Below, piece by piece: positions 4,171 through 64,000 of a DNA stretch of 64,000 bases (position 1 is the stretch's first letter; the number at the start of each line of letters is the position of its first letter). The notes below the pieces were generated by a model. It was not told the origin of the DNA. It saw nothing but the letters and a program-made list of their open reading frames with translations, and searched no databases. The stretch is taken from assembly GCA_965645245.1 (NCBI GenBank), contig OZ287075.1, forward strand, positions 2,356,001 through 2,420,000, written 5' to 3'. A program made the translations under genes and the position numbers. The DNA comes from Massalongia carnosa (taxonomy: Eukaryota).

Positions 4171-4171
4171 G

Positions 4172-5390: not shown

Positions 5391-5500
5391 CCCTATATTG
5401 CAGGGCAATTTTGTGCAAAACAGTAGTAAAAATTCTCTAAGTATCAGTAAAAATCCCCTGCAAATCAATCGTCATCAACATCCATCTCAGTATCACTATT

Positions 5501-7139: not shown

Positions 7140-7395
7140 TGTCAGGGTCCTAGCCTGACATAAGGCTGAGATGGAAGTGGGGATCACGGGAACACACGAG
7201 GCTAGCGCGACACTCGGTGCAGATATTTCTAGAGAGTCGCGCACATTAATTCTTTTCTTCTTTTGTAGATAAATTTTGGTTTAATAGCGGTTGATTAGAA
7301 TCGACGACAGCTTCCTTACACAATTTATCTACAATCTTATCAGAACTCTCTTGTGGTAGACACCCGTTCCAGACAATTTCCAGATAGGGTGAAAG

Positions 7396-8459
7396 TGTAA
7401 TACGGATGGCGCTAGAGGGATACGTGATCGCCTATGGCGGTTGCGGGATTAACTAGCGTGGACCATGCCGTAGTACGAAGTCGCATAGCCGTCGAGGCTG
7501 ACACACTGCCATCTTGCCCCGAAACTTCGGAGTTATTGTTATCACGTTCTTGACTACTTACAGATCAAACACCTGTCGAGGCCGTGGTGGTAGATTGCCA
7601 TGGAGTGTAAGGCGGACTCCTGTGGAGACGCCAAGGAACTCTATATGGGATCTACTGGCCTACTCGGAGCTACTGGATCTCTTGATGGATCAAGAGAGGT
7701 AGCAGGAGGCACGGCTCGCTGGACGCAGCTTGAGCTAGGCTCCCCGGTGTAAACTTTAGCTTCAACCTTTATTACTACGTTGGTAGTGATGTCGGCTGAA
7801 TGAATCTACATGACCTCGTTGTCTAGACCTTGTGTCTAGAGGCAGGTCCGCAGTGTAGCGAGGTATTCAGTCGGAGGTAACCTTCCATCACTAGGTAGTG
7901 GTGACGGCGAAATGAAGCTACATAGCCTGAGGCATGTAGTGAGGGATCTAGCCTGGGGTAGAATTGTTCTACCTTGCAAGGGAAGATCTAGAAGGCTGCT
8001 CGAGGCTGACTAGATGATCCAGCGAACGCCGAGTTCGTGGATGGATCCTGAGGGATGGTTGGATGTAATGCGATAAAGTCGGATGTGGATTGCAAGGCTG
8101 TAATGCTCGCAAGACTCCCAAGGCTTGCAAGGCTGTAATGCTCGCAAGACTCCCAAGGCTTGCAAGGCTCCTAAGGTTCCAAGGCTCCCAAGGCTATAGG
8201 CTTGGGGTGAGTAGGATAAATATCAGAACGAATCTTGTAGTATTCGTTAGCAATTAGTCTTTATTCTATGAACAACCTACGTTTGGGTCTCGGACGAGAT
8301 CTCTTGGTCTAAGCACTTCCACATCCATTAGTTCTTTGGATCACGTATACTCTCGGAGACTAGCACGTAGCAGCTATCTTCCTCCTCTCACGCTGAGCAT
8401 TTCTCCTTTCGAGATCAGTGTCGCTCGTGATAAGCTTACTGGTCTCGTAGCCCATTACA
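7396..8459 (+). mobile_element. Solo LTR of family H (1064 bp)
   Basis: TGTAA..TTACA ends, TSD GAAAG, homologous to 39254-40313 in reverse orientation. Confidence 0.93.
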
Positions 8460-8889: not shown

Positions 8890-9171
8890 AGTCTGATCAA
8901 GCAATAGCTTGCCAGGAGCGTTCGAGGACCCCGAACTCTCTTCAGACAAACGAACAATGCCGACGATTGAAGCGGCGCCGAATGATAACCCTAGGACGGG
9001 GTTGGGCAAGGATAGGGAGTTGTCTGGCGAGACAAACATCTCGGAGCATCCGTATTATGAGAAAGGGGCAATGGGACAACTAACGAGATATAGAGTCCGT
9101 AAATTCGAAGAATTTCGAGATATGATCTCGGATGACAGAGAGGGTCCTCTTTGGTACGAGTTCATTTCCTG

Positions 9172-9937
9172 TATACATGGTTCTTGATTTGAAGGTCTCC
9201 TGCCACCAAAAAAATTAAGCGAATGTGCAATTCGCTTAAAAGAGACCCCTCCTGCACGCGAGATTAATCGAAGAACTTTTAAATAAGTGAACTTCATATA
9301 AAATTAACCGAATTCTGAGATGATATGTAGCGTAATAAGTAATCATGTTCATGATATGCAGAAGTTTACGCTGAATCCAAATCTGAAAGAATTTTAATAA
9401 TTGAACAAGAAACGACTAAGTAATTGCCGAATCCAATAAAGTTTACCGTTAAATTTTCAACTTCAAATGTTAATGCTTCCCTCGGACCCGAGGGAAGCAT
9501 AGCGTGACATTGATATTCTTTGAGAGTGAAACACTTCGTACCAACCTCTTCTATCTTCCTACTTCTTCGTGAAAGTAAAGCTGAGCCAGCTGCGCGATGC
9601 GATCAAAGTAACTCTATACGCCGCCGACATGAGGGAACACGATCGTATTCATCATTGGATGCAGACGGTAACTACATATAATCGTTTTCTTGTTCTTGGA
9701 AAAGCTTCGTCTCTACGCCGCGGAATGGGTTGGGTTTTGCCACAGTTGGGTAACCCAAGTTACTAATATTAGTATACTTTTAAGGGTTTAATTCTATGTA
9801 TAGTATACTAGCATACTAAATATAGTTGTTTGGGTTGGGTTTTCAAGGTCAGAACCCAACCCATTCCGCAGCGTATTCGTCTCACGCCGGCACAGGGGCT
9901 GCTCGCATTGGAAGAATTACACGAACGCCGTGCCACT
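9172..9937. repeat. Unclassified repeat X, copy 1, first piece (continues at 17143-17170, 17984-18228, 23428-23538)
   Basis: Collinear with 38333-39253 once nested inserts are removed. Confidence 0.9.
9714..9875. mobile_element. 162-bp MITE, copy 2 (inverted relative to copy 1)
   Basis: Same TIRs; 8-bp TSD TTCGTCTC; empty paralogous site at ~38844. Confidence 0.93.
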
Positions 9938-13400: not shown

Positions 13401-15419
13401 GATCATCCCTAGGTATGCAATTTCGGTGACATGGAACTTGCACTTGGTGATGTCGGCTTGCAGGCCTGCATCTCGGAGTCGAGACAGGATTTTTTTGACG
13501 TGGACCTCGTGCTCCAGCTCATTGTCACTGTAGATGAGGATATCATCTAGGTACGCAGTGCAAAAGTCAGCAAGATACTCGTGAAGCGTATCGTTGATGA
13601 AGTGCTGAAATGAGGCGGGCCCGTTGCATAGGCCGAAGGGTAGGACCAAGGACTCGAAAAGGCCGAAACGAGTGCGAAAAGCGGTGAGTTCTTCGTCTCC
13701 TTCTCGTATGCGGAGCATATTGAAGGCGGCGATGATGTCTATCTTGGTGAATATCTTGGCTTTGATTAATTGGTGCAGGGTCTCGGCGATCAAGGGCAGC
13801 GGATAGCGATCCTTAATCGTGATGGCATTCAGAGCACGATAATCCACGCAAAATCGAAGTCCCCCACCTGGCTTTTTCACGAACATCACCGGGGAGGCGG
13901 CGTGGGAGCGACTAGCCCGAATAAATCCCTTGGCTAGATTTTCGTCGAGGTAGCGGTGGAGCTCCTCGATTTCGGTACGACTCATACCATACAGGGCCTG
14001 ACTAGGGGCCTGCGTACCTTCTTTCAGGTTTATGGCATGATCGTAGGGACGGCGGGGGGGCAAGTCTTCGGATTTCTTCTTCGAGAAGACATCTAGGAAT
14101 TCGTGGTATTGCTTGGGCAGAAGGGGGGCTGGGTCGACGTTCTTACTTTCTCGGTAAGCGTCTAACTCTTCACGAGTCACGGCGGTGGCTAGGGTTAGGG
14201 CCTTATTCATCTTAAATAAGGCTAGGTGGATTTCTTTCTCGTGCGGGCTTGCTCGAGATGGCAATGGTTGGTAGGCTGGGCTGGGTTTTTTGGCTTTTTC
14301 GATCAAATCGGGGGCTGAACTAGGTGAGGCTTTCATTACTAGAGGTTCGGGGTTGGTTTTTCCTAGAAAGAGGTCAATTTCTTTCATGGACAGGGCGAAA
14401 CTATCGAGGTTTTTCTTCCGAGTCAGTCGATTGAAGGAGATAGCTCCGATTTCGCAGACATTCATCTGCGGGGTGGTTTTGCGTGCTGCTTGATGAGCAC
14501 GTCTTTGGGTGGATGTCCGCAATTTGGACGGGCTTCGGTATCGGATTTTCGGGGGGGGAAGCCCTTGCTGGATTGCATTTTCAATGCGACTGGGTTCATC
14601 GGTGGGGTTTTGAGGCTGGGGTTCGGGTTCATTGATTTCGGGTTTGATTAAGGTGAAATCGCGCGGCGCGGTTTTGAACAAAGGGATGGATTCCTCGATT
14701 TTGACGGGATTGTCAGGAATGGAATTTTTGATTGTGGGAATTTCTTCCCCCTCTTCTAGAGAAGTTATCGACGTTCTGATAGACGTGTCTTGATTGATAA
14801 CTTTTCCTAGGGCGTCTTCGAGGATCTCTTCATCACAGATTTTTCGACTCTCGGCTGGGGTGAGGAATTCTTCCTCAACGGCTTGAAGCTTGACGGGGTG
14901 GGGGCAACAGTGAGTGAGGCAGTAGGGGGAGGCAAAGGTGAGCGTATTATGCCCAAAATCGGCTATGGCGTTATGCCGGCGGAGCCATGGATGGCCCAGG
15001 ATAATGGGATAATTTTTTAACCCGGTGACATATAGAAAGAGTTTTTCTACATGACCTTCTAGATCCATGGTGATTTCGGCCACATGAGTGATATTGCCGG
15101 ATAGAGCCCTTTGGCCGTCGAATCCTTCGAGCCGGCGGGGATATTTGAGAAGATGAAGGGGAATTTGGTTACTATGCGCAAATTTCTCATCGATGAATGA
15201 AAAGCCAGATGCACCACAATCAATTAGATTATACGTTCTAATCCTAGATCTAGATAATCGCAAGATACCTGTCATCACCATGTGACTGTCTCTGAACGTC
15301 TTATCTGATTCAAACAGCTCCAAAGCGGAGGCTGCGGAAAATCGCGTATTGGATCTCAAAGAGGGGGAAAAACTGGCCATCAAACATGAGGAAATGAGAA
15401 GGGGGGGGAGTCCCTGCAC
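10468..15419 (-). CDS. pol: B2 pol (protease LIDCGA, RT, RNase H, integrase, chromodomain); chromodomain disrupted by solo LTR D
   Basis: 1451-aa ORF to 11064; the true C-terminus resumes below 10570 and ends at 10468. Confidence 0.93.
10575..11103 (+). mobile_element. Solo LTR of family D (five 33-bp internal units)
   Basis: TSD TAGTT; homologous to 17455-17917 and 49373-49868. Confidence 0.94.
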
Positions 15420-29495: not shown

Positions 29496-31118
29496 CATAG
29501 CAATAAAGGTTGAAGCTGAAGTTTACACTGGGGAGGCCGAGCTCAAGCTGCGTCCAGCTAGCCGTGCCTCCTGCTACAACTCTTGATCCATCAAGAGATC
29601 GAGTAGCTCCGAGTAGGCCAGTAGATTCCATGTAGAGTTCACGGCTAGTGTCCACAGGAGTTCGCCTTACACTCCATGGCAATCTACCACGCGGCCTCGA
29701 CAGGTGTTTGATCTTTAAGCAGTCTAGAACGTAGTAACAACTAATCCAAAGTTGTGTGGCAAGGTGGCGTTGTGGTAAGATAGTGTTGTATCAAGGTGGC
29801 GATGTGCCAACCTCGACGGCTATGCGACTTCATACTACGGCTTGGCTCATGCTAGTTAATCCCGCCACCGCCCTAGGCGATCGTGTATCCCTCTAGCGCC
29901 ATCCGTATTACAGTTGCCTCCCCTCTAGGACGCGAGCTCCGCTGAGCGTGTAGTGGATAGTAACGACACGTTAGGTGGGTGGTATGATGTGTATGGCAGG
30001 CGGTGAAAAACCTCCTTCCTTGTATGATAGCAAGGAGGAAAACTGGCCTCCGAAGTCAATGAAAAACCTCCTAACCCAGTGGGAACTGATGAGGAAAACC
30101 GACTTGTCGAGATCGATGAAATACTCTAAAACCCTGATAAGACAACGGGAGAACATAGGGAAAACAGACTTCTCAAGATCGATGAAAAACCTATAAACCC
30201 TGATAATATAACGGGAAAACGAAGGGAAAACAATTCCTAGACTCCATAGTAGGTGGCAGGAGAGAAACCCCGAGGATTCTACTTCTTCGCCTTGTTGCTC
30301 CGAGTGCTGGTAGCTGGTCGGCCGCGTTTCCGCTTGCTTTTATGCTTGACGGTCGGCTTAGCCATTGGCGGTGCGGTGTCGATAGGAGGAGAGGTTGCTG
30401 TCGGCTTGGTGGGGTTACCATCATGGTAGGCTTTGACGATCTTCCGAAGGTGTTTGATCGCTGCCGCCGGTTCCCACGTACTTACTTTCATCCTCTGGAT
30501 AGCCCTTCCAGGAGACCAGATAGTAGAGGCATGGTAGGTGGCCAGCTTCTGACTCCTTGGCGTAGACCGCGCTATCCAAAGTGCCTTCAACCTCGTACTC
30601 CTCATCGTTACCAGCTTCGAATTCCAGCTGCTCCGCGATCTTCTCGTCCACCCGCCCCTTCCTTGTGGTATCCTGCTCCTGCAGTGATACATGAAAGACA
30701 TCATGGATGCGCCACCGTTTTGGAATCTCCAGCTTGTAGGCTTGCTTCCCCACGGGTTGCAAGACACGGAACGGCCCAAAGACCATAGCCTCTAGCTTGC
30801 GATTACGTTTGGTTTTAATATACTTGCTGATTAACCAAACTTTATGGCCAGGTGCATAGCTCCGTGGCTTGGTTACTTGGTTGTGGGCCTTTGTCTGCCA
30901 TTCTTGTACGTGCTGAAGGGTTTCCTTGCAGATAGCCATCAAGTCCTTTAGTTCTGCACCTAGTTCTTCTGTTGACTTGGACCTGGAGCGGGGGTCGATG
31001 TCTTCCTCATATGAGACACGGGGGTGGTAAACATAGTTCAGCTCGAACGGCGTATGCCCAGTGCTCGCGTTTTTCGCATTGTTGTACGCAAACTCAGCTA
31101 TCGGAAGCAGGCGCGCCC

Positions 31119-33113
31119 TAAGAAAAAATATAAGTATGATTAAGGTAAAAAAATGAGACGAGTAAGGATAAGAGATAGAACAAAAAGGAAAAAGAGGGTA
31201 ATAATAAGAATGCGGGAAGGATGACAAAAACGATAAAGAAGAAGATAAGCAAAATATGGGGATAAGAGCAAGGTTTCGAATTAAAAAGAATAGATGAGTA
31301 AGGATAAGGGTAAAAAAAAGGGCAAGAATGAGCGGGAGAAAGATGATTTGGATAGGTTTGAGAATTAGGAAGAGGAAGAGGGAGAAGTTAAGGACGAGGA
31401 TAAGAGTAAGGGTAAGAATTTTTGTAAGGGTAAGGATTAATATGAATATAAGGGTAAGGATAAGGATAAGAGAGTTTTTTAGGTTGTGAATAAGGGAGAG
31501 AATTTAGAAGAGAGAAAGGAGAAGGATAAATATTATGAATGGGGAGAGATAGATAGATAGATAGATATACTCTTACGCCGATATGTCACCGGCCGAAGGC
31601 CGGCCCATGCGGGATGGACTACTATGCTACAGGAAAACCTTTAAGAGGAATAAAAACCCATTGCCAACGCTGCGCGTACGAGGTCCCAACGACCTCCAGC
31701 TGTGCTGCTCGTGTGCTTTTTCGATGAGTCCCATGAATGAAAAGAAAATTATTGCTTGTATAGCAAGCTTGCCGATAAAAAAATTGCGCCAAAACGCCAG
31801 CTTCGATAATCCATCTCGTTACCTGTTTCAATGTTTTGGATGTTTCGAGTATCGTACGATACTCGTTGGTATTTATACGCAGAAACAGCTCTAGTCTTCC
31901 CGTCATTAATGGGCAGTGCATGATTACGTGTTTGGCCGTTTGCTGGGGCCAACCACAGCTGCAGGCCGCCGTCGTCACGTTGGGAACTCGTCGTTTAAAT
32001 AGAAAACTTGCCAGACCTATTTTTTCCGTGCGAATTTGGGTAGCTAACGCGCTTTCCGCTTTTACCAGATTATCGTGTATTTTGATTCTTCCTTTGGTTA
32101 AGGAAGCGCGCTGTGCTTCGGTGGGAAAGGGTACGCGATCTTGATATGCTTTCCAGGTTGTCTGCCATTTCGTTTTGTAATGCGCTTTTGTGGCTTTCGT
32201 GTGAGCGCTGTGACTCATCCTTACTGCATTGGCTGTGAGCATGTGTTGCTCCGTAGGCGTGATCCAGGGTGGGTGCGGCGTTGGGGCTGCGGTGGGTATG
32301 GCGCTGATTACTGTGTTTTTGGCCCATTCGTGCTTGAGCATTCCTGGGGTCGGTTTCGGCGATCTTTTCTTGCCCGCTTTTCCGCGCAACTTGCGTTCTA
32401 TCTCCTTGCAGAAAGACGAGATGAGTCTCGTTTGCCCGGCGGTTCGTTGGCGATATCTCGCTTTGACTTGTAACTCTTCCAAATGCGATTCTATAGACGT
32501 CACGTGCGTTTCGGTTTCCAATACTGGAATCGGGGTGGCCCCGAATGCACCCGTTATTGTTCGCAAGCACTTGTTTTGCATGACCTCCAGCTTGCTCGTC
32601 GCGGCTTTGCTTTTCCCTATTTCTTTCGGTGTGTGCCATACGGTGGATGCGTAGGTCATTGCCGGACGAACGACCGCAATATAAACCTGTCTGGCCTTCG
32701 AAAACGAGGCTCCCCATGTGGACGCGTAGATCCTGCTCAGTGCACCCTATTGTTTCGTGATTTTTTCTTGAGTTTTCCGTATATGGGCTCCCCATCTCAG
32801 TTTGGTGTCGATTTGTAGACCCAGCACCCTGATATCCGGTTTGGGTTCGATCGTTTTTGTGCTTATCCTGATGGTGGCCGTCATGTCGAATTTTTTCGGA
32901 TTTCTGGACAGATGAATAAACTCGTATTTGCTCGGGGATGAATGGGGAGAGGATGTGGGTTAGGAAAAGAATAAGGATAAGAGAAAGGATGAGAGGAAGG
33001 ATTAGAGGAAGGGTTAGAGTAAGAGTGAGAGTGAAAAGAAGAGTGAGGATAAGGATAAGGATAAGAGTTAGAGAAAAGAAGAGGGTTAGGGGTAGTTTTT
33101 AGAGTAAGGAAAA
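31119..33113. repeat. Purine-rich (TAAGGA/TAAGGG/TAAGAG-like) low-complexity repeat, split by the LINE; second copy at 49121-49372
   Basis: Strong A/G strand bias; ~31220-31450 aligns with 49121-49350. Confidence 0.8.
31549..32937 (-). mobile_element. 5'-truncated LINE (Tad1/I-like): RT C-terminus, Cys/His domain, 3' UTR, (TATC)n tail
   Basis: 14-bp TSD ATGAATGGGGAGAG (31535-31548, 32938-32951); LGLQIDTKLRW, MTYASTVW, ITGAF, CSCG..QTAKHVIMHCP. Confidence 0.93.
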
Positions 33114-36100
33114 TGATGTCGGAATCCGGGGTGAAGGTTAGAACACAAGTGGAGGATTATTTCGGCGCAATCAATCGGCAAGGACTTCAACCGTCATTCT
33201 CATTCAGTCGTTAACCATTGTAAGCATTGTTGGTTGCGTTGTGATGATTCAAAGAGGAGATGTCATGTCTGCTGGAGCACAGTACCGCGCTAACCGAATT
33301 CGGGTTTTTTCCTGTATTTCTCATGTTAATCCAAATCCTAACTACGAGAAGTGATCGATCATGCGATGATGTGAATAATGTGATCATGCGATGAGTAACT
33401 TAGACCTGTCATTGATTTTACATTCTTAGCTGCCGTTCTGGTGGATTTTATTGATGTTTTCTCGTGTCACCTACCGCGCTAACCGAAATAGGGTTTTTTC
33501 CTAAATTCCTCATCTCTAGGACTTCGACTGCTTAGCGTCACTCTTCCCCGATCATGCCTTCTACGGAGACATTGAAAAAATTATGTGGTAGGCCTCGAAA
33601 GTACTCTACTGCTGATGAAGCTGCAGCGGCCAAGAGACGGCAGAATCGAGGCTATTACCACAATCCATCGCGCCCAGTTGGTCTTGCAGGTCCCGCCGAC
33701 TTTGTTGCCTACGAGCCTCTACCTACATCCGATATTCCTAGCTACACCCTGCGTGCCATTGGTCTGCGAACCAGCCCAGACATACCAATCCCCCCGGATC
33801 GCGATATAGTAGAAGACTGTGAGGAAGAGCTTGAACCCGAAGCATACCTAACCCAGCATAACCCCCTCGAACTGCAACTCCAAATACCCTACACGAGGAG
33901 CCCGAAATCATTCGACAAGTTGAGAAAATATGCACAGAGGAGGTGACAAATATTGAAGACGCAGACTATGATGTGGAGGTCACGGCACGCTTGGAGGAGT
34001 CGGCAGCCCATCTCGAGGCAGCAGAAGTGCTCCAGGCACTACGAATTGGGCAACAAGAGAGGTAGGAGAGCAGCAAGACCGGGTCACTGTATTCTGACTA
34101 CGCCGCCCAGCAGTTTAGTGATGTCGAATCATCAGCACCTAGACACAACAGCACACCAATTCATAGTCCACCGAATACAGATATACAACAGGGCAGTTCA
34201 CCGCATACTGCAGATACACAACGCAGTCACAGCAGGACTTCCAAGGCTCAGTCAAGTAGCACCAGTCAGTAGTAGACGTGGGACTTCGTTCCCAACGCAG
34301 AGAAACACGCTATTATCATGGATGAAGCCTTTGACAAGTGTCGATTCTAACCCTACTTCGCCCACTTCACGCCCATCTCCAAGCATTGCTATATCTACAC
34401 CTACGCCCTCGGATCTTCATCAACCTGCTGGATCCGTCGAAGCACCACCACCCGTGCCTTCAAGAGAACCCCCCCTAGGCCAAAGTCCACAACCAGCAGT
34501 ACAGCAGGCACCGCGTAGCGCGCAGAGTGCCCACATCGCAAATCCGAGCCCTGGTAAACTAGAGAGCACATCCTCTAAGCTGGCCAAGTAGCTACGTAAA
34601 TTCCGGTGCTGCACTCATGAGCAGCATACCGAAGCCGATCGTCAGCATGAAGAACACCACCGACGCCGAGGTGTGCACTCAGAGTGCTCATCCATACCTG
34701 ATATTACTTCCATTGTTAAAGGATTACACAATGGGGGCACTCCGCTTCCCGATGTCCTCAAAAGTCCCCGACTGATGAGAGCAACCGATATCCAGGGTGT
34801 CGGCTACAAGGCAGCATTCGAAGGCACTGCTAGTGCTCGCCTGGACGAAGCCACTCCCCATAATGATGGACTACCTCCGAGTCTTTGCCTGTCCAAGAAA
34901 CACGTTACAAGTCGGAAGAATCGTCAACCAAGGGTCAGTTTTGACATCGACAGCACCTGTTGTTTCCCCCAGAGTCTCGGGTTTGCCCGTCGCGGGATAG
35001 AGTGGTTCCCCAAGGCCCATCCCGTCCTCAATCTCACGGGCGACATACACTTTGGGTTGAAGGTCCCTGGTTCCACGATCAAGGACAATCCATCCCTAAG
35101 ATATATCCCGCTGCATAAGATATCCCACTACTGCTTTGGGCGCTTGGTTGGCATGAGCGATCTTCTCATGTTTATCTACTTTCCCGCCCTGCACAAAGAA
35201 AGCGATCATGGGCATACCTCGTATCTCAGTAAGCGCAACGAGCAGCTCTGGTTGGATGGCATCCTCCTTCCCTGTATCACCAAGGTTGTTAAGTCTTCCA
35301 ACATACTGCTGAACTATCCGGCTTCTTCTCGCATAGCCGACCTTGCATACACGGCGATATCTGCAGAGAGCCTCAAACGGAAGGAGGCTGCCAACCAGCA
35401 GTTAGTTGCCCATACGATCCAGCCGCGGTACCTCGATGAGCTCTGGACCTTGGTTGGTAGGACCATAGATGAGAATCCTGGGTTTCATCGGTTCCAAGGC
35501 GCAACACTGTTCACGCATTCCAAGAACACCAAGCTGGCAACTAATGACTCTACTGGTTTGGTCGAAACATACAATGGCTGGAAGAGGCAGTGGCTGGATG
35601 CAGCAGATCCGGAATTCTACAACCCAGATCGCACCTTTGTGGACATTGCAAAGCAGATCACCTCACAGGACAGCGCGCTTCCTTATGATCAGAAACCAGA
35701 GAACCACGAAGCCGAGGTGTTCCTGTGGAAGAAGTGCTGCCTAGATGAGTATTGCAGGACGAGGATGGTCCTCAACCCGGATGGAAGCAAGGCTAAAGGG
35801 AACCCGAAGCGTACTGTATACTCCTGGGCTACCATGCAAGATACGATGAGCCAGACGCTGCTTGCTGCACCGCAGGGGGACGAGACCAAGGACGGGCTAA
35901 TATATTCTCAGTTCTATATGCTCGCCAAGACTCTATTCGACTCTTCGAAAGTGTACGTCTTTACTAACGACTCGGTGGAGAACCTAGACCTGGACCCTGG
36001 ATATGTGCGTTCTCTGCAACAGGAGGGCGGAGGTATCACGTTCTCTAGGGGTGTGTGCGAGTTTGCCTATCTCCACAGCAAGAAGCGGGCTCATGCAAAC

Positions 36101-36359
36101 CTCATGGACAGTCGCTGGAAGTCTTATGGAGTGAGGGAAGAACATCGGATATCACTAAGCATGATGGAGGAGATATATGAACAGTGGAACCAGTGGACCT
36201 CTACGACGCAGACGACATAGCAGACACCCCGTCTCCACTGGCATATTACATTGTACCTACAATCGACTTTGTATGCCTCCTCCACGCCCAGATCAATAAA
36301 TACTGCTTCCTGTTCGAGCATGTTCTTGCCCACACAGCTAAGACGTACTCCCTGCCTGA

Positions 36360-36603
36360 TGATGAATAGTAAAATTCACGTGTAGGTATAATAGCATGAT
36401 TGTCATTGAAGGTATGAATTATATGTCAGCTATCTACTGCATTATATAGCAGTCACATTGGAGACCTTTCGGCGACCCTTTTAATAATGAGTCAGCCGGT
36501 CCACTGAATCTCGGTCCCCGGAGGTCACCTCGGTCCCCGTGGTAGAGTCGCCGAAGATAAGCACTTGATGAATGCCCATGATGGTAGTCCTTACCATCTG
36601 ACA
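36360..36603 (-). mobile_element. Solo LTR (244 bp) in the Y ORF
   Basis: TG..CA ends, TSD CCTGA/TCTGA; shares one end with 37322-37583 in opposite orientation. Confidence 0.88.
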
Positions 36604-37321
36604 TCTGAGACCATCATCATGGTTGTTGCGCTGCGGGGACTCCGCTTCTGCTACGGTGGAAATATGCTGGCGCGAGAGTCCCTACTGTTTAAGGACCGGT
36701 GGAGGGTTGTACGAGGAGGGAAGACCATCGTCAAGGAAGGACTCGGGATGAAGGAGAGTATAGAGCTATCCGGGTTAGGGTGGTTCAAGCCTAAGATCAA
36801 CTGGGAGACGTGGCGACTAGCAGCACCACATGGTGAGAACATCCTGGTTGGGAACATGCTTATGCACGAGGAGTATAAGCGGAGGTGGAGAGCAGTAAAG
36901 GATCTCCGCGACGTCTTCATTCGTTTCAACCAAGCGGCGTCATGGTATGAGAGGTACAATGTGCAGGAGAACCCTCGATTGCTGAAGTCCTGGCTGGAGT
37001 ACCTTCACGTTCTTAACCTCGAGCAGTTTGACGCAGATATCTGGAAGGCCATGCACAATATCAACAAGCAGACTAAGGAGCTAAGACGCGAGGGTGCAAA
37101 GCCGCCTGCAGAGTTTAGGTTCTGCTGCTACCGTGACATGAAGAGGATGTTCCTAGTCGACGCAGTTACTGGACAGCCAGGTTCACCGCACATGGTCACC
37201 GGGAACAAGATGCGGTTCGACAAGGCTATAGGTCTCCTCAACTTCCTATTCCTATCCGATGAGGAAGAGCGGCGTGGCTGGGGTAACAAGCCGTACCGTG
37301 TGATCCTGAACAAGACGTTCG

Positions 37322-37583
37322 TGTTAAATGGTGAGGCTACCATCGGTTAGATGGTTAGGCTACCATCAATATAGGCATCCATCGTGAGTCCCACGGGTGC
37401 CTGCCAGGCATCTACAAGAGGTGCCTAACAGGCAGATATGGAGGTGCCTAACAGGCAGCTATGGGAGGCCTACAGCATTACTGTTATGTGACTGCTATAA
37501 AAGCAGGTAGACAGCCCACATAGATAATTACCTTCAATGACAATCATGCTATTATACCTACACGTGAATTTTACTATTCATCA
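37322..37583 (+). mobile_element. Solo LTR (262 bp) in the Y ORF
   Basis: TG..CA ends, TSD GTTCG. Confidence 0.9.
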
Positions 37584-38332
37584 GTTCGTGATGCTAGAAC
37601 AGCGTCTTGGGTACGGCCGGGCGGATCGATGGCTTGATGACTTCTTACACCTCATCCGGCTGACGCACTGGATCCTTCCATACCCGTCTAATCGGGGTCT
37701 CATTACGTCGACCAAGACCAGTCAGAGCCGGGGACTTAGGCGGCAGATGATGTGGTTCTCGATGGTCTACGCAGACCCAGCGCACGCCGAAGTCCCGTTC
37801 AAGCACCCTCCTTCAACGCTGTATAGTCTTTTGAGCCGTGCCCGGGCACAAACATTTGGACGTTCCCAGGAAGAGCCGCGATGGGGCACGGCACAGCTCC
37901 TAGCCGCATTCAAGGTGGAGGGGGTCCTGGCCAGTGGGCAGGAGGATTTCTGGGTTGCCGGAAAGATGAGCATAGGATATGGGGGACTCGAGCCTCTCTG
38001 GGAGCGTGGGAATCCACCGAGGCTGAAGATGCTCGAGGAGATCCGGCAGAAAAGCCTAGATGAGCTTGAAGAGCTGATGGCTGGACAGAGTGTCGAGTCG
38101 GCAGCTAATGGCGCGGCGGCAGACGACGAGCCAGAAGCTGACGACGTAGTAGATCATCAAGCCCAGGGTGGCGAGGCTGGTAGTGTAGAAGTATGAGGTT
38201 ATTCATTTTTGTTATATTAATGATTCTATAACTCTGTCCTTCTAAAGTCTAAAATCATCCAAGTCCAGGATGCGTGCCGCATACCGGAATAGGTCTACTG
38301 TTACACGTGACCATAATAATGTCTAGCGCCTA

Positions 38333-39253
38333 TATACATGGTTCTTGATTTGAAGGTCTCCTGCCACCAAAAAAATTAAGCGAATGTGAAATTCGCTTAA
38401 AAGAGGCCTCTCCTGCACGCGATATTAATCGAAGAACTTTTAAATAAGCGAACCTCATATAAAATTAACCGAATTCTGAGATGATATGTAACGTAGTTAG
38501 TAATCATGTTCATGATATGCAGAATTTTACGCTGAATCCAAATCTGAAAGAATTTTACTAAGTAATTGCCGATTCCAATAAAGTTTACCTTTAAATTTTC
38601 AACTCAAATGTTAATGCTTCCCTCGGGACCCGAGGGAATCATCACTTGACATTGCTGTTCTTTGAGAGCGAAACACTTCGTTTCGACCTCTTCAATCTTC
38701 CTGCTTCTTCGTGAAAGTGAAGCTGAGCCAGCTGCGCGATGCGATCAAAGTAACTCTATACGCCGCCGATTTGACGGAACACGATCGTATTCATCATTGG
38801 ATGCAGACGGTACATATAATCGTTGTCTTGTTCTTGGAAAAGCTTCGTCTCACGCCGGCACAGGACCTGCTCGCATTGGAATAATTGCACGAACGCTGGG
38901 CCACTCTAACCTCCAGTTTTGTCATCCTGACCGACTGGTTTCGCAGTCTCATTTCAATAATTGAGATTCGAATCACTCCCCGACCCAATGAATGATAGCA
39001 GAAACTATTCGCGACGACTTCTTCAACAGCAGCCGGCTCTCCTCCGCATCCAGCCGCGATGGTCTTCTCCCCGCCCCTCCCCCGCGCCTTCCCCTAGCCC
39101 CGCCAGCTCGCACTCCTCTACCCTTCCGCGTCCGCCTTCACTTCCTTCGTCTCGCAGCAGTACCCGCCAGCGCGCCGCTCCTTCCGCGAAGCAACCTGCC
39201 GTCGGCCCGTCACACAAGCGAGATGCTTAGGGACAGTCCCCCCCCGACCGTCA
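38333..39253. repeat. Unclassified repeat X, copy 2 (uninterrupted), with a Pro/Ser-rich ORF start at ~38988
   Basis: Homologous to the five pieces of copy 1. Confidence 0.9.
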
Positions 39254-40431: not shown

Positions 40432-40838
40432 TATTGAGAATTGAGCCGAGATGTCTGCTTATTAATAAGAGCACCAACCGAATGCGGATCAAGCACTAAG
40501 GGTTATTTCGGCCGTGGCAACACATCACTAATCATTCGAGATGTCATCCATCTGCCAGCTAAGGGAGGCAAAACGGAATATATTGTTAGATGGTGAGGCT
40601 ACCATTGGTTAGATGGTCAGGCTACCATCAATATAGGCATCCATCGTGAGTCACACGGGTGTCTACCAGGCACCTATGGAGGTGCCTAACAGGCAGCTAT
40701 GGGAAGCCTACAGCATTACTGCTATGTGACTGCTATAAAAGCAGGTAGATAGCCCACATAGATAATAACCCTCAATGACATGTATGCTTCTTATTTGCCC
40801 TACTTCCGTTTCATGATCAATAGCCTGGTGTTTCAACA
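40432..40838. mobile_element. Solo LTR (TATTGA..TCAACA) containing a nested short LTR (40584-40780)
   Basis: TSD GATAG; absent from the paralogous site at ~30030; inner unit homologous to 37322, flanks TATAT/TGTAT. Confidence 0.87.
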
Positions 40839-56966: not shown

Positions 56967-58244
56967 CTAGTTTTTTGGCTTGGGAGGATTGGTGCAGTGG
57001 GTAGAGATATGCCCTTTTTCACTGCATCTATAGCAGGTGACTTCGGCAGGAGGCTCCTTGCCACGTCTGTGATTCTTACCCTGAGTCTTCGACGATCGAG
57101 TTTGCGAGGCATCCCTTGACTTATCGCGACGAGAGTCGCGATGTGAGGAGTTCTTGGTCGAGGTGTGCATATTAACGGATGCCTCGGCCTGCATTGCGAG
57201 AGCGACGAATTGCGAGTAGGTGCTCGCATTGTCAACCATGTTGTAAAGGGCTGATTTAATCTCAGGACGCAGAGCATCTCGAGCGCGGCGAATCATGTCG
57301 GACTCGCGGGGGAAATGAAGGTCATACTCCTGAAGAACGGAGCACAATTGTTGAAGCTGTACGCTAAACGTGCGTACGTTGTCTCCAGGGCGCTGAACAA
57401 AACTAAAGAACTTTCCCCAGGTTTTGTCCACGAAGGTCTTCTCGTTGCCAAGGTCATCCCGGAGGACATTTAAGAATGCGGCCCAGGGTGGGTCGTAATC
57501 AAGCGGCAATGTCTTGACGTATTCTGACCATACATGGCCAACAGTCTCTCCGCGAAGAAAGGAAGCCGCGAAAGAGACTGAGGAAGAGTCATCGGGATGC
57601 GCCCGAGCAGTCTTGAAGTACTCGTGACACTGACGAGCGAACTCATACAGCTCCTTGTGACTACTTCCCTTGTATATGTCAGGAACCTTGGGCTTCAGTA
57701 AGGGACGAGAAGCGCCGTCATAACAGCGGTTTGAGTAGTCACGCGAAGGTGACCGGCGGCGATAGTAATGGCCGGGCGAGCGAGAGCGAGAGTCCCGGCG
57801 GGTATGATGACTATTCCGCCTGGATGACCTCTCAGGCGACTGGGGTGCCCGAGGAGATCGTGGGGCCGATCGAGATCGGCGAGCAGACCGAGAGGGAGTT
57901 CGGCCCTGGCTCTGGTTGATTTGGTCCAGGGTAGACTGGATAGCAGCCCATTGCTCGGCAGTGAGAGTCACTGTGGTAGCTGACGTGCCAGAGGAAGGAC
58001 GGGAGGAGCCGTGCGGGCCGACAGGAAGTGGGCCACTAGACGGCGGAGCACCAGATGCATTGGCAGAATTTAGCTGAAGCACCGGAGGTGCCGAGGAGAG
58101 AAGGATCCATTGAGGCCCTAATTGCAGCGGACTGGCTGCGGGTGGCCATGGAAGAATCGATGAGGAAGTTTGGCCTGAACGACGAAAGGCCAAATGGTGC
58201 TGGATGGCGAAAGCGGTAAAAAGCAGCACCCTTATTGCGACCAC
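56967..58244 (-). CDS. gag: F gag (start codon uncertain)
   Basis: Arg/Ser-rich N-part, PDIYKG, CYRCSEKGHISTHC knuckle. Confidence 0.88.
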   Translation of the reverse strand: MVAIRVLLFTAFAIQHHLAFRRSGQTSSSILPWPPAASPLQLGPQWILLSSAPPVLQLNSANASGAPPSSGPLPVGPHGSSRPSSGTSATTVTLTAEQWAAIQSTLDQINQSQGRTPSRSARRSRSAPRSPRAPQSPERSSRRNSHHTRRDSRSRSPGHYYRRRSPSRDYSNRCYDGASRPLLKPKVPDIYKGSSHKELYEFARQCHEYFKTARAHPDDSSSVSFAASFLRGETVGHVWSEYVKTLPLDYDPPWAAFLNVLRDDLGNEKTFVDKTWGKFFSFVQRPGDNVRTFSVQLQQLCSVLQEYDLHFPRESDMIRRARDALRPEIKSALYNMVDNASTYSQFVALAMQAEASVNMHTSTKNSSHRDSRRDKSRDASQTRSSKTQGKNHRRGKEPPAEVTCYRCSEKGHISTHCTNPPKPKN

Positions 58245-59420
58245 CGGATCGTGCTAATCCGGAGATATATAGAGCATTTAGAATTGAAACGGGGAGACCT
58301 TCTCCCAGCAGGCATTCACTACTGGAAGATGGGATCCACAGGGGCTACACAACGTGATGGTCACAATAGAGGTATAAATAGGTCGGGTCGGGTCAAAGGG
58401 TAGACTTAATGCTACCCTTTTAAAGTGCTTGATCATTGATCTATATAGGATAGGACAATCCATAACCTAAGCTCTTCTTCCATACCTTGCCCATACTACC
58501 TGGTATTTTCGGACTCCGAATACTTCGGACACCGAAAGACACGGGTAGATAAGACTAGGCAGGTGAGCTAGGGGAGGTGAGGCGAGGCGAGGGGATACTT
58601 CGTGTACTACGAAAACACCTCCATAATAAGTTAAGTCCCCACACTATGCCTGACTGGGTTAGGCGGGACCTTATTGTCTTGGTGGTTGTTTTGGCTGTAC
58701 GTATCCCACATAGCCACATAGGCCAGTCTTACGTTCAACGAACACATACTAGGCCTACCCTATTACATTTTTGTAAGTTGGAAAATAAGCCATGCTTACG
58801 GAGTTGTTCTAACACCCATCGCACAGAATCTTCATGGGCTTTACCCTTCTGTTCGGTATAGATCAGTATATCATCCAAACAAACGATGCAGAAGACATCC
58901 AGTTTTAGTGCCAACGCTTTATTGATATAGGCTTGGAAGGAGGCCGGAGCATTGGATAATCCGAACGGCATGACGCAGTATTCGAAATGGCCATATCGGG
59001 TGCGAAAGGCTGTCTTCCATTCGTCGCCTTTCTTAATTCTGATACGATTATAGGCTGCAATCAAATCCAATTGGGTGTACTGTTTGGCCCGTCCTAGTCG
59101 ATCTAAAGACTCGCCTACTAATGGTAGCGGGTAGCGATTTTTAACTGTCAGATTGTTCAGACCCCTATAATCCACGCAGAGCCTCAGGGTACCATTTGCC
59201 TCAGGCACGAAGAGAATAGGAGCTCCAGCTGGTGAGGTAGATGGCTGGATAAACCCATTAGCCAGGTGAGCATCGAGGTAGGCCCTTAGCACTGTGAGCT
59301 CTATTTCTGATAGGCTATAAATAGGTTCATATAGAGGCTGCTTTCCATCCACGAGGTCGATCGCATGATCATGTAGCCCGTGCTCTGGTAGCTCGGCTGC
59401 ACTATCTTCCGAAAAGACAT

Positions 59421-60963
59421 TGTAGGGGGGTGGAGCGGTGATACTCTTAATTCAAATTGCTAGCGGTTCGGGAGTTGGTTCTTTTCGGCTGATACTCGGT
59501 AAAGGTAGCGGGGAAGTCAGGTGACAGTCTTTCCTTTAGTTTAGTTATAGATAGTTCTTTCCTTTTAGAGCAAGCATGCTCGTAGCAATAGCTACAACAC
59601 ACAGCATCAACACATACAGTTCACAGGCACGAGGCACGAGGCGCGAGGCATACAGTGACCAGTCTAGCTATTGTTCTTATTCTATTGTCTTGTTCTTCCC
59701 TTGTTTGTTTGTTCTCTTGCACTCCCAGCAGTAGTGGACCACGCACACCACCCAGTTCATCCTTCCACATTTGGCGACCACGGTGCGATCTCTATTTGAC
59801 CGGGAGTAGGAATCAAACGACGAGTCTAGATAGACATGTGAGACAGACAGTAGACTTACAGCGACAGCGACAGCGACAGGCGACAGCGACAGGAAACAGC
59901 GACAGGAAATAGCGACAGGAAATAGCGACAGGCGACAGCGACAGGAAACAGCGATCTAGAAGCAGCGACAGCGTACAGAGATCTAGAGATAGTGGGAAAA
60001 CGACATGCAGCGACCGGAGGAAGACAGAAAGAACGGGGGCATCCATTTGACCCTAACAGAGGGTGGCGATACGAACAGACCTCACCTGAACGGGCGGAAT
60101 TGATTATAGGGGAAGAGACGGACCCGAATAGTCTGCGATACGGTGGAGACGGTCGAGAGTCTAACATAGCGACATCACGATTCCGATAGGCGGGAGATAG
60201 GTGGCCGATTTAACCCGAACCAATCAGCGAGCTCGAATTCCGTCTCGGTGGCAAGCTAATCCTGTTTGAGAAAATCGTGAGAATAAGCGAGCAGCCTCGA
60301 GGACTGAGCGACGTCGTCGATTTGACAATGTGAACAGAAGGACCCACCAGAAACATGGGGTTCGGAAAGTACCGCATTCCTGCCCGAAGGCCATCCGGAA
60401 TCGAGACCATGGCGACTGAACGGCACCGAGGAGGCATAAAAGCTGCCTCACTGCCCATCTTCAACAGATCATTTCATTCATCTTTTTCACCTTATTCATC
60501 CTGTTCAGACAGTGTCGAGCACAAAGCATATCAGCATAACAGGCCTTCGGACCTACCTCCACCATACATTTATCCTACTAGCCCGCACTGTCATCACTAC
60601 TGTTGTCAGTCGAATGGAGAGGACAAGGAAACAACAACAGCTCTTCTTTCGAAAATCGTTACACACCTCCTACCTATACTTGAGCGACTTGCTACTACTA
60701 CCTGCAAGCATACTGAACCTGCTACTGAGACCGCTGTCCGAACTAGCCCACCGACTCGACCTGAGTGTGAGAGTTCATCGTCGGCTACCATATCTACAAT
60801 CGAAAATCAGTCTAGTGGTGCAACAATCAGCGACATGGCTACTCTATCTACGACTTGTCTCGAGTACTCTAGGAATAGACCTGCTATGTCTGCAGGGCCC
60901 TTCGGGTTTGTGATGACCATGCCTCAGCCAGGGACTCCCGGGACCCCATTCTTTCAAGGTAAA
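59421..60963 (+). mobile_element. LTR element G, 5' part: LTR 59421-59769, PBS TGGCGACC, long leader with CAGCGA(CAGGAAA) repeats (~59859-59970), gag start; cut by Y copy 2
   Basis: LTR matches solo 6753-7109; tRNA-type TGG PBS; gag-like MPQPGTPGTPFFQGK. Confidence 0.85.
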
Positions 60964-62519
60964 TGATGTCGGAATCCGGGGTGAAGGTTAGAACACAAGT
61001 AGTGGATTTTTTCGGCGCAATCGATCGGCAAGGACTTCAATCATCATTCTCATTCAGTCGTTAACCATTGTAAGCATTGTTGGTTGAGTGGTGATGATTC
61101 AAAGAGGAGAAGTCATGTCACAATATTCTGCCGGAGCACTATACCGCGCTAACCGAATTCGGGTTTTTTCCTGTATTTCTCATGCGAATCCTAATCCTAA
61201 CTACGAGAAGTGATCGATCATGCGATGATGTGAATAATGTGATCATGCGATGAGATCATGCGATGGGTAACTTAGACATGTCATTGATTTTACATTCTTA
61301 GCCACCCTTCTTTTCTCGTGTCACCTACCGCGCTAACCGAATTAGGGTTTTTTCCTAAATTCCTCATCTCTAGAACTTCGACTGCTCAGCGTCACTCTTC
61401 CTCGATCATGCCTTCTACGGAGTCATTGAAAAAATTATGTGGTAGGCCTCGAAAGTACTCTACTGATGAAGCTGGAGCGGCCAAGAGACGGCAGAGTCAA
61501 GGTTATTACCACAATCTATCGCGCCCGGTTGGTCTTGCAGGTCCCGTCGACTTTGTGCCTACGAGCCTCTACCTATATCCAATATCCCTAGCGACACCCT
61601 GCCAGCCATTGGTCTGCGAACCAGCCTCCATATACCAATCCCTCCGGATCGCGATATAACGGAAGACTGTGAGGAAGAGCTTGAGCCCGAAGCATACTAA
61701 GGATAATCCCTCTCGAACTGCAACTCCAAATTCCCTACACGAGGAACCCGAAATCGTTCAACAAGTAGAGAAAATACGCACAGAGGAGGTGACAAATACT
61801 GAAGACGCAGACTATGATGTGGAGGTCACGGCACGCTTAGAGGAGTCGGCAGCCTATCTCGAGGCAGCAGCAGTGCTCTAGGCACTACGAATTGGGCAAC
61901 AAGAGAGGCAGGAGAGCAGCAAGGCCGGGTCACCGTATTCTGACTACACCGCCCAGCAGTTTAGTGATGTCGAATCAGCAGCACCTACACACAACAGCAC
62001 ACCAATTCATAGTCCACCGAATACAGATATACAAAAGGGCAGTTCACCGCATACTGCAGATACATGACGCAGTCACAGCAGGACTTCCAAGGCTCAGTCA
62101 AGTAGCACCAGTAGTAGACGTGGGACTTCGTTCCCAACGCCGATAAACACGCTATTATCATGGATGAAGCCCATGACAGGTGTCGATTCTAACCCTACTT
62201 CGCCCACTTCACGCCCATATCCAAGCATTGCTATATCTACACCTCCGCCCTCGGATCTTCATCAACCTGCTGGATCCGTCGAAGCACCACCACCCGTGCC
62301 TTCAAGAGAACCCCCCCTAGGCCAAAGTCCACAACCAGCAGTACAACAGGCACCGCGTAGCGCGCAGAGTGCCCACATCGCAAATCCAAGCCCCGATCAA
62401 CTAGAGAGCACATCCTCTAAGCTGACCAAGCAGCTACGTAAATTCCGGTGCTGCACTCATGAGCAGCATACCGAAGCCGATCGCCAGCATGAAGAACACC
62501 ACCAACGCCGAGGTGTGCA
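60964..62519 (+). mobile_element. Element Y copy 2 (5' 1.55 kb)
   Basis: Aligns to 33114-~34677. Confidence 0.85.
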
Positions 62520-64000
62520 AGCGTTGTTGGTTGAGTTGTGATAGATAAATGTAAGGTGTCCTTGAGAATTACATGAATTGCAAAGGCGGTCGTGTAACTA
62601 ACTCGATTCTGCAGAAGCACATTGCCCAATTGAGTTTTTTCCTGATTTTTAGTAACACGTAATCCCGACCTGATTCAAGTGATCAAGTGATGTAACTACG
62701 AGGAGTGATCATGCGATAAGTAGCTTAGACCTACCATTGATTTTAAATTCTTAGCTGCCGTTCTGGTGGATTTTATTGATGTGTTCTATTGTCGCGTACC
62801 GCGCTAACCGAATTCGGGTATTTTCCTGAATCCCCCATGTTCAAGAGTTATCGCGGTCGCTAGTCATCTCTAAGACCTCGACTGCTTAGCGTCACTCTTC
62901 CCCGATCATGCCTTCTACGGAGCCATTGAAAAAACCAGGTGGTAGGCCTCGAAAGTACTCTACTGCTGATGAAGCTGTAGCGGCTAAGAGACGGCAAAGT
63001 CGAGGTTATTACCACAATCCATTGCGCCCGGTTGGTCTTGCAGGTCCCTTCGACTTTGATGCCTACGAGCCTCTACCTACATGCGATATCCCTAGCGACA
63101 CCCTGCCTGCCATTGGTCTGCGAACCAGCCTCCACATACCAATCCCTCGGGATCGCGATATAGCGGAAGACTGTGAGGAAGAGCTGGAACCCGAAGCATT
63201 CCTAACCAGAACAACCCCCCTCGAACTGCAACTCCAAATTCCCTGCATGAGGAGCCCGAAATCATTCGACAAGTTGAGAAAATACGCACAGAGGAGGTGA
63301 CAAACACTGAAGACGCAGACTTTGATGCGGAGGTCACGGCACGCTTGGAGTAGTCGGCAGCCTATCTCGAGGCAGCAGCAGTGCTCCAGGCACTACTAAT
63401 TGGGCAACAAGAGAGGCAGGAGAGCAGCAAGGCCGGGTTACAGTATTCTGACTACGCCGCCTAGTAGTTCAGTGATGTCGAATCAGTAGCACCTAGACAC
63501 AACAGAACACCGATTCATAGTCCACCGAATACAGATATACAACAGGGCAGTTCACCGCATACTGCAGATAAAAAAATACAGCATACCGCGTAGCGTGCAG
63601 AGTGCACATATCGCAAATCTGAGCCCTGATCAACTAGAGAGCACATCCTCTAAGCTGGCCAAGTAGCTACGTAAATTCCGGTGCTGCACTCATGAGCAGC
63701 ATACCGAAGCCGATCGCCAGCATGAAGAACACCAACAACGCCGAGATGTGCACTCAGAGTGCTCATCTATACCTGATATTACTTCCATTATTAAAGGGTT
63801 ACACAATGGGGGCATTTCGCTTCCCGATGTCCTCAAAAGCCCCCGACTGATGAGAGCCACCGATATCCAGATCGTCGGCTGCAAGGCGGCATTCGAAGGC
63901 ACTGCTAGTGCTCGCCTGGACGAAGCCACTCCCCATAACGATGGACTTCCTCCGTGTCTTTGCCTGTCCAAGAAACACAACCAAGGGTTGGTTTCGACAT
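62520..64000 (+). mobile_element. Element Y copy 3 (diverged leader, ~280-bp internal deletion near 63575, runs out of the window)
   Basis: Aligns to ~33225-34947. Confidence 0.85.

Follow-up and report, generated by a model that had tools for sequence, protein, structure and literature searches.

What is the multi-copy sequence that starts near position 33,106 of a 64,000-nucleotide stretch of Massalongia carnosa DNA (assembly GCA_965645245.1, contig OZ287075.1, positions 2,356,001 to 2,420,000; the whole stretch is called the window below), and which enzyme could move it? A first-pass annotation, made from the sequence without database searches, had described this feature, element Y, as an autonomous transposon of an uncharacterised superfamily. 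We conclude with high confidence that Y is a genuine, unclassified, multi-copy family of mobile-type elements. On the identity of its enzyme, we see the case as evenly balanced for our best reading, a tyrosine nickase resembling Rep_trans in a eukaryotic transposon superfamily that would be new. A fuller reading, which we hold to be slightly less likely than not, would make Y the first transposon superfamily of eukaryotes to depend on a tyrosine nickase of Rep_trans type and TBP fold; it would be widespread in Pezizomycotina and still active there, perhaps with a preference for chromosome ends.

Comparison of the window with itself by blastn revealed three copies of Y, the number first proposed, all on the forward strand (Table 1). 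The window copies begin AAGGAAAATGATG..., and the start TGATGTCGG is common to copies 1 and 2, whose upstream flanks are unrelated. The likeness extends 8 nucleotides further upstream (AAGG[A/T]AAA, 7/8 identical), so the true start of copy 1 may be 33106 rather than 33114. The claim of one start in unrelated hosts thus stands for the start and the flanks, with a possible shift by these 8 nucleotides. The proposal that copy 2 lies in a gag gene was left unconfirmed, as the 210-residue frame upstream of copy 2 (60334-60963) has no Pfam match. Copy 3 lies head-to-tail with copy 2, 185 bp downstream of it, and matches copy 1 in two segments (62705-63570 and 63577-63978) at 88-93% identity.

The proposed end of the element at 38330 did not survive. 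This position is the truncation point of copy 1 and not a natural 3' end, because a different repeat starts at 38329 and other Y copies run on past 38330; the 3' end is therefore unreadable from the window. In contigs from four public runs of three studies, the copies that continue past 38330 share one sequence there (one contig in run X4, five in run X5). A 20-mer that continues Y beyond 38330 in these other copies was not found in the window, so the missing 3' tip has not simply been displaced behind the inserted repeat. That repeat (38329-38905) begins to the base with CCT[A/G]TATACATGG and has a 90%-identical copy at 9168-9937, in an unrelated flank. The same public runs contain the joints of the shorter copies: the truncation junction of copy 2 recurs in run X1 (a loose end at 34677), and the deletion joint of copy 3 (34218->34510) recurs in runs X2 and X4.

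We mapped copy 1 against an intact 1,389-residue homologue, P0001 (79% identical), whose residues 1-1315 are collinear with 33572-38151 by tblastn. This comparison bore out the proposal of one long open reading frame (ORF) interrupted by two solo long terminal repeats (LTRs) and a few frameshifts: in copy 1 the frame is broken by TAG stops at 34063 and 34589, by frame changes after 33861, at 34263 and after 36194, and by two LTR insertions, each flanked by a target-site duplication (TSD). Y copies in the public runs skip both insertions, with a joint 36355->36605 (249 bp skipped) around LTR 1 in runs X1, X2 and X5 and a joint 37316->37584 (267 bp skipped) around LTR 2 in all four runs; at 34063 they have a C, and three indels restore their frame. 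Taken together, these sequences indicate that copy 1 has decayed, while other members of its family keep an open frame in this organism or in close relatives. We read it as a dead, nested copy of a mobile element family that would be autonomous.

We next asked how widely the protein occurs, with the 541-residue open piece of copy 1 (34595-36220) as the family query. It has 85 long homologues at E<=1e-3, the best of them 79% identical and most of them 1,300-1,450 residues long, and an exhaustive HMMER search returned 708 representative clusters at E<=1e-3 and 158 at E<=1e-30. Named members belong to Leotiomycetes (Botrytis, Hyaloscypha, Pseudogymnoascus, Leptodontidium) and Pleosporales (Pyrenophora, Paraphaeosphaeria, Plenodomus, Westerdykella, Zopfia, Periconia), with a distant member in Tuber indicum, and lichen-associated samples also contain the family. 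Y is thus an element family of filamentous ascomycetes (Pezizomycotina), so far unnamed, and its named members are all annotated "hypothetical protein". We found no publication on family Y proteins or on a eukaryotic Rep_trans element, and none naming the locus tag Bcin11g06560; Repbase and Dfam were outside this search, so Y may have been filed earlier as an unclassified consensus. One identical Botrytis cinerea protein is present on 56 contigs, Hyaloscypha variabilis carries at least 12 loci spread over many large contigs, and Pyrenophora tritici-repentis carries several.

Comparison of 16 related metagenome loci (L001-L016) defines the unit. L001 (6774-11432) and L015 (9788-14434) share a 96% identical 4.66-kb unit with unrelated flanks on both sides, and intact units hold one intronless ORF each (1,422 residues in L001, 1,432 in L007). 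Between L007 and L012, the ratio of nonsynonymous to synonymous substitution (dN/dS) in the core is 0.108, which indicates that the protein is under purifying selection. L016 matches the same unit of L001 at 2783-7441, with likeness over more than 10 kb including the flanks. Of its 539 lineage-specific changes, 538 are G>A or C>T, the signature of repeat-induced point mutation (RIP), and its GC content is 34.5% as against 46.7% in L001; these changes identify L016 as a RIP-mutated duplicate of the L001 region.

The ends of the L001/L015 unit can be read directly. Its 5' end is TTGACAT(A/G)AGATGTCA..., a small palindrome, and its 3' end is ...TTAATTCCCTA, with no poly(A) or A-rich tail in any of four sequences; a perfect 16-nucleotide palindrome lies ~40 nucleotides before the 3' end of the L001-type unit. 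We found no terminal inverted repeats (TIRs) joining the ends in L001 6700-11500, in L007 1-5400 or in the window copy, in which the only strong inverted pair is formed by the two LTR insertions. Neither of the two independent L001-type insertions (L001 and the L015 group) has a TSD.

Upstream of the ORF, copy 1 contains an internal repeat (33283-33324 and 33472-33513) that reflects two diverged monomers, each with one motif of the form GCTAACC-N(5-6)-GGGTTTT (33289-33308 and 33478-33497). The window holds four matches to this motif, all in Y copies, against none expected, and their spacing within Y copies is 189 and 184 bp. Monomer number varies: the window copies have two units and the L015 group has one, and L001 has arrays with periods of 189 bp (3.4 copies) and 178 bp (2.0 copies). 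The same motif recurs in tandem 178-189-bp units of related loci. It is kept between subfamilies whose proteins are only ~50-55% identical, and is therefore probably a functional cis element. Overall, the intact element looks like a single transcription unit of ~4.7 kb, with at least one 5' monomer of ~180-190 bp, an ORF of ~1,375-1,430 codons and, on the 3' side, a short stretch that contains small palindromes.

The encoded protein comprises an AT-hook, a disordered linker, a Cys/His cluster, a core of ~430 residues and a C-terminal domain of ~480 residues without a recognised fold. Each motif singled out by the first-pass annotation is present (GRPRKY, the Cys/His cluster, FDIDS, FVDIAKQ, YSQFYMLAK and REEHR), and several are invariant across the family. 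In alignments of 50 and 60 members, with residues numbered as in the window's 541-residue piece, D117, D119, S120, G134, K313, D350, G434 and Y441 are invariant, and H152, H178, D221, Y437, Q439, K445, R514, E516 and R518 nearly so. The Cys/His cluster is a possible zinc-binding or DNA-binding module.

Library searches assigned this protein to nothing known, in keeping with the original statement that it lacks signatures of a transposase class. No meaningful Pfam family was found in five window pieces (E<=1), seven close homologues (E<=10) or 39 distant homologues (E<=0.01), and reverse transcriptase, DDE, recombinase and helicase families were absent from all five pieces and from the conserved region of both sets of homologues. 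Stray matches were confined to sub-threshold AT_hook (in homologue P0067, E 0.15) and UBA-like domains in N-terminal linkers, and to an N-terminal Lactamase_B fusion in P0026 that is probably a merged gene model. NCBIfam and PHROGs gave nothing meaningful beyond one 16-bit PHROG of unknown function; searches of the PDB by sequence and by profile returned chance or low-complexity matches only; the ESM Atlas gave no usable match for the family Y protein; and the viral structures of BFVD gave nothing at E<=1e-3. Neither outcome that the first-pass annotation had named as refuting its proposal was seen: no known transposase and no host gene family was matched with confidence, and the junctions of the window copies are discrete and lie in unrelated flanks.

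We then turned to predicted structures. AlphaFold2 models were obtained for the 541-residue window piece (predicted local distance difference test score (pLDDT) 89.5, predicted template modelling score (pTM) 0.88) and for a 1,148-residue homologue, P0002 (pLDDT 83.6, pTM 0.73). In all four structural searches run with VIA, the best matches to the core were Rep_trans initiators, a family (PF02486) that includes RepC, RepD and RepDE of the pT181 family, RepSTK1, the MOBT relaxases and RstA of CTXphi. Two cluster representatives among 48,161 chains took the first places, a result reproduced with both models. Rep_trans chains also ranked seventh and eighth in the Foldseek search with the domain model. 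The top Foldseek rows in the PDB, PP2C/TAB1 phosphatases and RNA-polymerase second subunits, were rejected as noise (E 0.1-2, template modelling score ~0.05, root-mean-square deviation >25 Å), as were helical-bundle matches to residues 520-687 of the full model, which represent a common arrangement.

The conserved residues of Y recall the Rep_trans active site. In the available part of the description by Carr et al. (2016, PMC4797284), the catalytic tyrosine of Rep_trans lies on a strand, flanked by arginine and lysine; RxDxAxD and RxE motifs occupy the strands adjacent to it; and the metal ligands D46, D142 and E214 lie on three separate strands, the carboxylates within ~4 Å of the shared metal site and the tyrosine ~5 Å from it. 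Family Y has, in order, SFDxDS, VD(L/I)(G/A)K, YSQFYxxxK(E) and RxExR, invariant or nearly so and each on its own predicted strand: D117 and D119 on 113-123, D350 on 347-356, Y441 on 435-442, and R514, E516 and R518 on 513-520. Conservation of these residues across 60 sequences is complete or no lower than 90%. The model therefore has the features of a Rep_trans site in both presence and order, namely a tyrosine strand, carboxylates on three strands, and an RxE strand after the tyrosine strand, in addition to an SFD strand at the start of the domain. The alternate spacing of the conserved side chains would place them on one face of the sheet. Where the alignments start, D119 stands opposite D46 of RepDE and D9 of RepSTK1, assuming an ungapped first strand. 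We favour a relationship to Rep_trans because of this top ranking with two models, the collinear invariant residues and the lack of TIRs and TSDs. The likeness is weak but consistently top-ranked structurally, and it comes with matching invariant residues. The earlier statement that no transposase class is recognisable thus holds for family libraries and less well for structure.

Several results weigh against this relationship. The VIA scores lie below the tool's own noise guide. Foldseek against the PDB found no match at E<=1e-3, and its Rep_trans rows have E 0.43-0.93; the structure search that the annotation had proposed as a check accordingly produced no significant match. Alignment by hhalign to 116 pT181-type Reps, a narrow set (86-99% identity), returned a probability of 0.18% and a local SFD/SFD match only; a genome search for PF02486 supplied no further loci for a more diverse profile. 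Neither Pfam Rep_trans (PF02486) nor DUF7845 matched at E<=10. The candidate catalytic residues were placed by strand and order alone, and the context of the tyrosine differs, with Q at -2 and K at +4 in family Y as compared to RxYxK in Rep_trans. At ~430 residues, the Y core has double the length of a Rep_trans domain (~200), and no helicase is encoded. DNA folding of the 5' monomers showed no conserved hairpin around the GCTAACC...GGGTTTT motif, and the absence of TSDs comes from two insertions only.

Y also differs from Rep_trans proteins in lacking sequence or profile similarity to them, in being four to five times as long, its additions including an AT-hook, a Cys/His cluster and an extra domain of 480 residues, and in having a eukaryotic host. 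There is a precedent for a relative that is detectable by structure only: according to the available text of a 2026 report (PMC13107129), Rep_trans was thought to be restricted to bacterial elements until an archaeal relative became visible by structure alone. That relative, Rep-Arvir (DUF7845) of archaeal viruses and plasmids, has a conserved tyrosine and acidic residues in a larger multidomain protein. By its description it stands apart from Y, as it is archaeal, resides on replicons rather than in chromosomal transposons and has a winged helix-turn-helix domain, and Y has no DUF7845 match.

Y can be compared with each class of known eukaryotic element. Helitrons, Replitrons and the bacterial IS91/ISCR elements lack TIRs and TSDs, have subterminal palindromes, move replicatively through a tyrosine-nicked strand and tend to leave tandem or partial copies; Y resembles them in its ends, palindromes and partial head-to-tail copies, and would do so in its mode of movement if the Rep_trans reading is right. 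Helitrons and Replitrons use an HUH Rep, and Cryptons use a tyrosine recombinase. We found no HUH motif and no Rep, Helitron_like_N or helicase match in Y; its ends (TTGACAT...TTAATTCCCTA in L001/L015, AAGGAAAATGATG... in the window) differ from the 5'-TC...CTRR-3' ends of Helitrons; and the nuclease fold of Helitrons and Replitrons is RRM-like, in contrast to the TBP-like fold proposed for the candidate nuclease of Y. The TIRs and fixed TSDs of DDE/DDD transposons (Tc1/mariner, hAT, Mutator, CACTA, KDZ, PIF and others) were not found at the ends compared and, for TSDs, at the two insertions compared, and an RNase H-like transposase domain was found neither by Pfam nor among the structural matches listed. 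As for Cryptons and Starships, Pfam gave no Phage_integrase or DUF3435 match and no recombinase appeared among the structural matches listed; the C-terminal half was folded only within the full model. Y has no RVT match, LTR or A-tail of LTR or non-LTR retrotransposons, and the same library detects RVT_1 in neighbouring elements. With no defining domain of Helitrons, Replitrons or Cryptons found in Y, we therefore file it under no known superfamily.

Some relatives of Y have a distinctive chromosomal setting. Loci L007-L013 form a subtelomeric group, the only related loci with a telomere nearby: in L011, 5.2 kb separate the Y-like ORF from a terminal (TTAGGG)n tract (14309-14403), and where L011 and L013 have terminal (TTAGGG)n, L007 and L009 have an interstitial TTAGGGTTAGGG (two telomere units). 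In L007 (10052-14844) the two telomere units are followed by a non-LTR retrotransposon on the minus strand, with a 992-residue ORF containing RVT_1; this may be a long interspersed nuclear element (LINE) joined to a former chromosome end. L007 also carries, 329 bp after its Y-like ORF, a 595-residue ORF (5149-6936, plus strand) with an OrsD zinc finger (PF12013), which the L001-type unit lacks. TLH genes and the yeast Y' element are likewise multi-copy, and at least one Y relative is found within 5 kb or so of a telomere, next to an ORF with an OrsD zinc finger. TLH and Y' differ from family Y in their helicase ORF and chromosome-end location; family Y has no helicase domain, and the window copies are not beside telomere repeats. 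According to the available text of a preprint on Botrytis cinerea (bioRxiv 10.1101/2022.03.07.483234), TLH proteins open with OrsD-like C2H2 motifs, and the subtelomeres of strain Vv3 contain a "Helitron-like" element of 15.5 kb, with a helicase as its only recognised enzyme and no nuclease.

This setting raises the possibility that Y is a subtelomeric multi-copy gene family that spreads in the manner of Y' and TLH, by recombination, break-induced replication and segmental duplication and not by its own transposition. The telomere-proximal ORF of L011 and the interstitial telomere units of L007 and L009 fit such a history, as does a 25-bp tandem repeat in L010 (3389-3575, 6.4 copies) that contains the telomere-like GGGTTAGGGTTA and lies ~530 bp upstream of the Y-like ORF. 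L001 and L016 share their flanks as well as the unit, the locus tags H4I96_00003 and V8E51_000006 give a hint, no more, of contig-terminal genes, and B. cinerea subtelomeres homogenise repeated genes, as far as the same preprint's available text describes them. Against these points, the window copies lie in a transposable-element-rich stretch without telomere repeats and have junctions that are discrete to the base in unrelated flanks; the part common to L001 and L015 is the 4.66-kb unit only; the H. variabilis loci are dispersed over many large contigs; transposons accumulate in subtelomeres too; and the invariant acidic and tyrosine residues suggest a DNA enzyme. We consider subtelomeric spread distinctly unlikely for the family. 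In the original description of Y as an autonomous transposon of an uncharacterised superfamily, what holds is the discrete multi-copy unit with a large conserved protein; we infer autonomy and transposition, and subtelomeric spread is an alternative for some relatives.

Granting that Y is an autonomous transposon of a new superfamily, its enzyme could still be unrelated to Rep_trans: another metal-dependent nucleic-acid enzyme, for example primase-polymerase-like or of a new nuclease or transposase fold, that would own the invariant DxD...H...D...Y/E residues and share only the sheet arrangement with Rep_trans. The multi-copy and discrete-junction evidence fits this view equally well, and the sub-noise structural scores and the hhalign result favour it. 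So would the DxD on the first strand together with near-invariant H152, H178 and D221, a combination that may resemble the DxD, His and Asp motifs of archaeo-eukaryotic primases. The best 50 rows of two wide VIA and two Foldseek PDB searches, however, and two second-look VIA lists as well, contain no chain of a primase, a polymerase, an RNase H-like or a PD-(D/E)XK protein; Rep_trans heads every VIA run, and the motif order agrees with it. We regard an enzyme of another kind as unlikely, but a serious contender. A further view treats Y as an mRNA-like unit copied via RNA by the reverse transcriptase of other elements, as a retrogene-like or non-autonomous retroelement, with a protein that has some other selfish or host role. 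Y is scarcely more than a 5' untranslated region, an intronless ORF and a 3' untranslated region; copy 3 is 5'-truncated; LINE and LTR elements abound nearby; and mouse L1, with its promoter monomers, offers a parallel to the tandem 5' monomers. This view is hard to square with the defined 3' ends, which carry no A-tail in any of the four sequences, with the lack of TSDs and of a reverse transcriptase in the protein, or with the strong conservation of enzyme-like residues over 60 sequences, and we judge it very improbable.

We therefore return to Y as a transposon with a Rep_trans-type nickase and outline how it might work, on the understanding that we infer every step beyond the presence of conserved residues on a sheet, including the chemistry, the roles of residues and the rolling-circle route. 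The AT-hook and the Cys/His cluster would bind element DNA, perhaps at the 5' monomers. The core would be a much-expanded TBP-like, Rep_trans-like nickase in which three carboxylates on three strands (D119 or D117, D350 and E516) hold a divalent metal. Y441, which is on a neighbouring strand of the sheet, would nick the DNA on one strand, perhaps aided by Y437, K445, R514 and R518, and stay covalently bound to the 5' phosphate of the cut strand. Since the protein has no nucleoside triphosphatase motif, a host helicase, together with a host polymerase, would be needed to displace or copy the nicked strand. A second cleavage and joining at the 3' end would then release the strand or move it to a new site without duplicating the target, and failed termination could yield extra monomers and head-to-tail partial copies. 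Mobility would thus be replicative and resemble that of pT181-type plasmids, MOBT relaxases, IS91 and Helitrons in passing through an intermediate that is single-stranded or rolling-circle-like.

Table 1. Positions of element Y, its parts and its secondary insertions in the 64-kb window (residues numbered as in the 541-residue piece).
Feature	Position	Strand	Remarks
Copy 1	33106..38330	+	Decayed, 3'-truncated; ~4.7 kb minus two LTR insertions; from self-comparison, tblastn with P0001, flanks and public-run joints
Copy 2	60956..62519	+	5' 1.56 kb only; 91.3% identical to copy 1 over 1,595 columns
Copy 3	62705..64000	+	5'-truncated, internal 291-bp deletion; runs off the window end
5' untranslated region	33106..33553	+	Two diverged ~189-bp monomers, motif in each
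Single intronless ORF, ~1,375 codons	33554..38196	+	ATG 33554, stop 38194-38196; broken by 2 stops, 3 frameshifts, 2 LTR insertions
AT-hook-like GRPRKY	33587..33604	+	Near N-terminus; GRP motif conserved in family consensus
Acidic / Pro-Ser linker	after 33604 to ~34590	+	Poorly conserved; low-confidence in model
Cys/His cluster CCTHEQH..HEEHH..HSEC	34607..34693	+	Helices 8-21 and 34-41 in model; C6 near-invariant
Putative catalytic core	34925..36199	+	Residues 111-535; TBP-like / Rep_trans-like sheet in model
FDIDS	34940-34954	+	D117, D119
FVDIAKQ	35636-35656	+	D350
YSQFYMLAK	35903-35929	+	Y437, Y441, K445
REEHR	36134-36148	+	R514, E516, R518
Solo LTR 1	36360..36603	+	TG..CA ends; TSD CCTGA 36355-36359 / TCTGA 36604-36608
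Solo LTR 2	37322..37583	-	TG..CA ends; TSD GTTCG; orientation opposite to LTR 1

The surroundings of Y are transposable-element-rich fungal DNA, with Gypsy-type integrase/chromodomain and reverse transcriptase frames on either side. Three minus-strand frames near Y (30424-31503, 56970-58253 and 58738-59451) are retroelement remains: among them are a chromodomain together with an SH3 domain of Tf2 type, a fragment of RVT_1 and a zinc knuckle below threshold (zf-CCHC, 17.4 bits; cut-off 20.8). LTR 1, LTR 2 and 40584-40788 are three related solo-LTR-like sequences with ~100 bp of one end only in common; the inverted repeat between LTR 1 and LTR 2 includes 55 nucleotides at 100% identity. This pattern suggests two LTR subfamilies or a recombinant. 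Rfam gave no match in 32800-38800, and the window contains no telomere repeats beyond chance.

The enzymes of eukaryotic DNA transposons belong to a small number of classes, namely DDE, tyrosine recombinase, HUH Rep, and a protein-primed polymerase combined with an integrase; family Y, by the tests run, fits none of them. Its hosts include well-studied plant pathogens (Botrytis, Pyrenophora) and mycorrhizal or endophytic fungi (Hyaloscypha, Tuber). Before 2026, when archaeal viruses were added, Rep_trans enzymes were believed to be limited to bacterial plasmids, phages and ICEs. If the Rep_trans reading is true, the nicking enzymes with which bacterial plasmids copy their DNA would gain a first relative in eukaryotes, and each of the three domains of life would have a known case of the Rep_trans fold. 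Rolling-circle-like transposition would then have been invented or acquired independently a third time in eukaryotes, beside Helitrons and Replitrons, adding a new mechanism to eukaryotic mobile DNA and explaining a class of unclassified fungal repeats. Even if that reading is wrong, a confidently modelled, enzyme-like protein of ~1,000 residues, with no structural relative and from an active repeat, is a defined target for structural and biochemical work.

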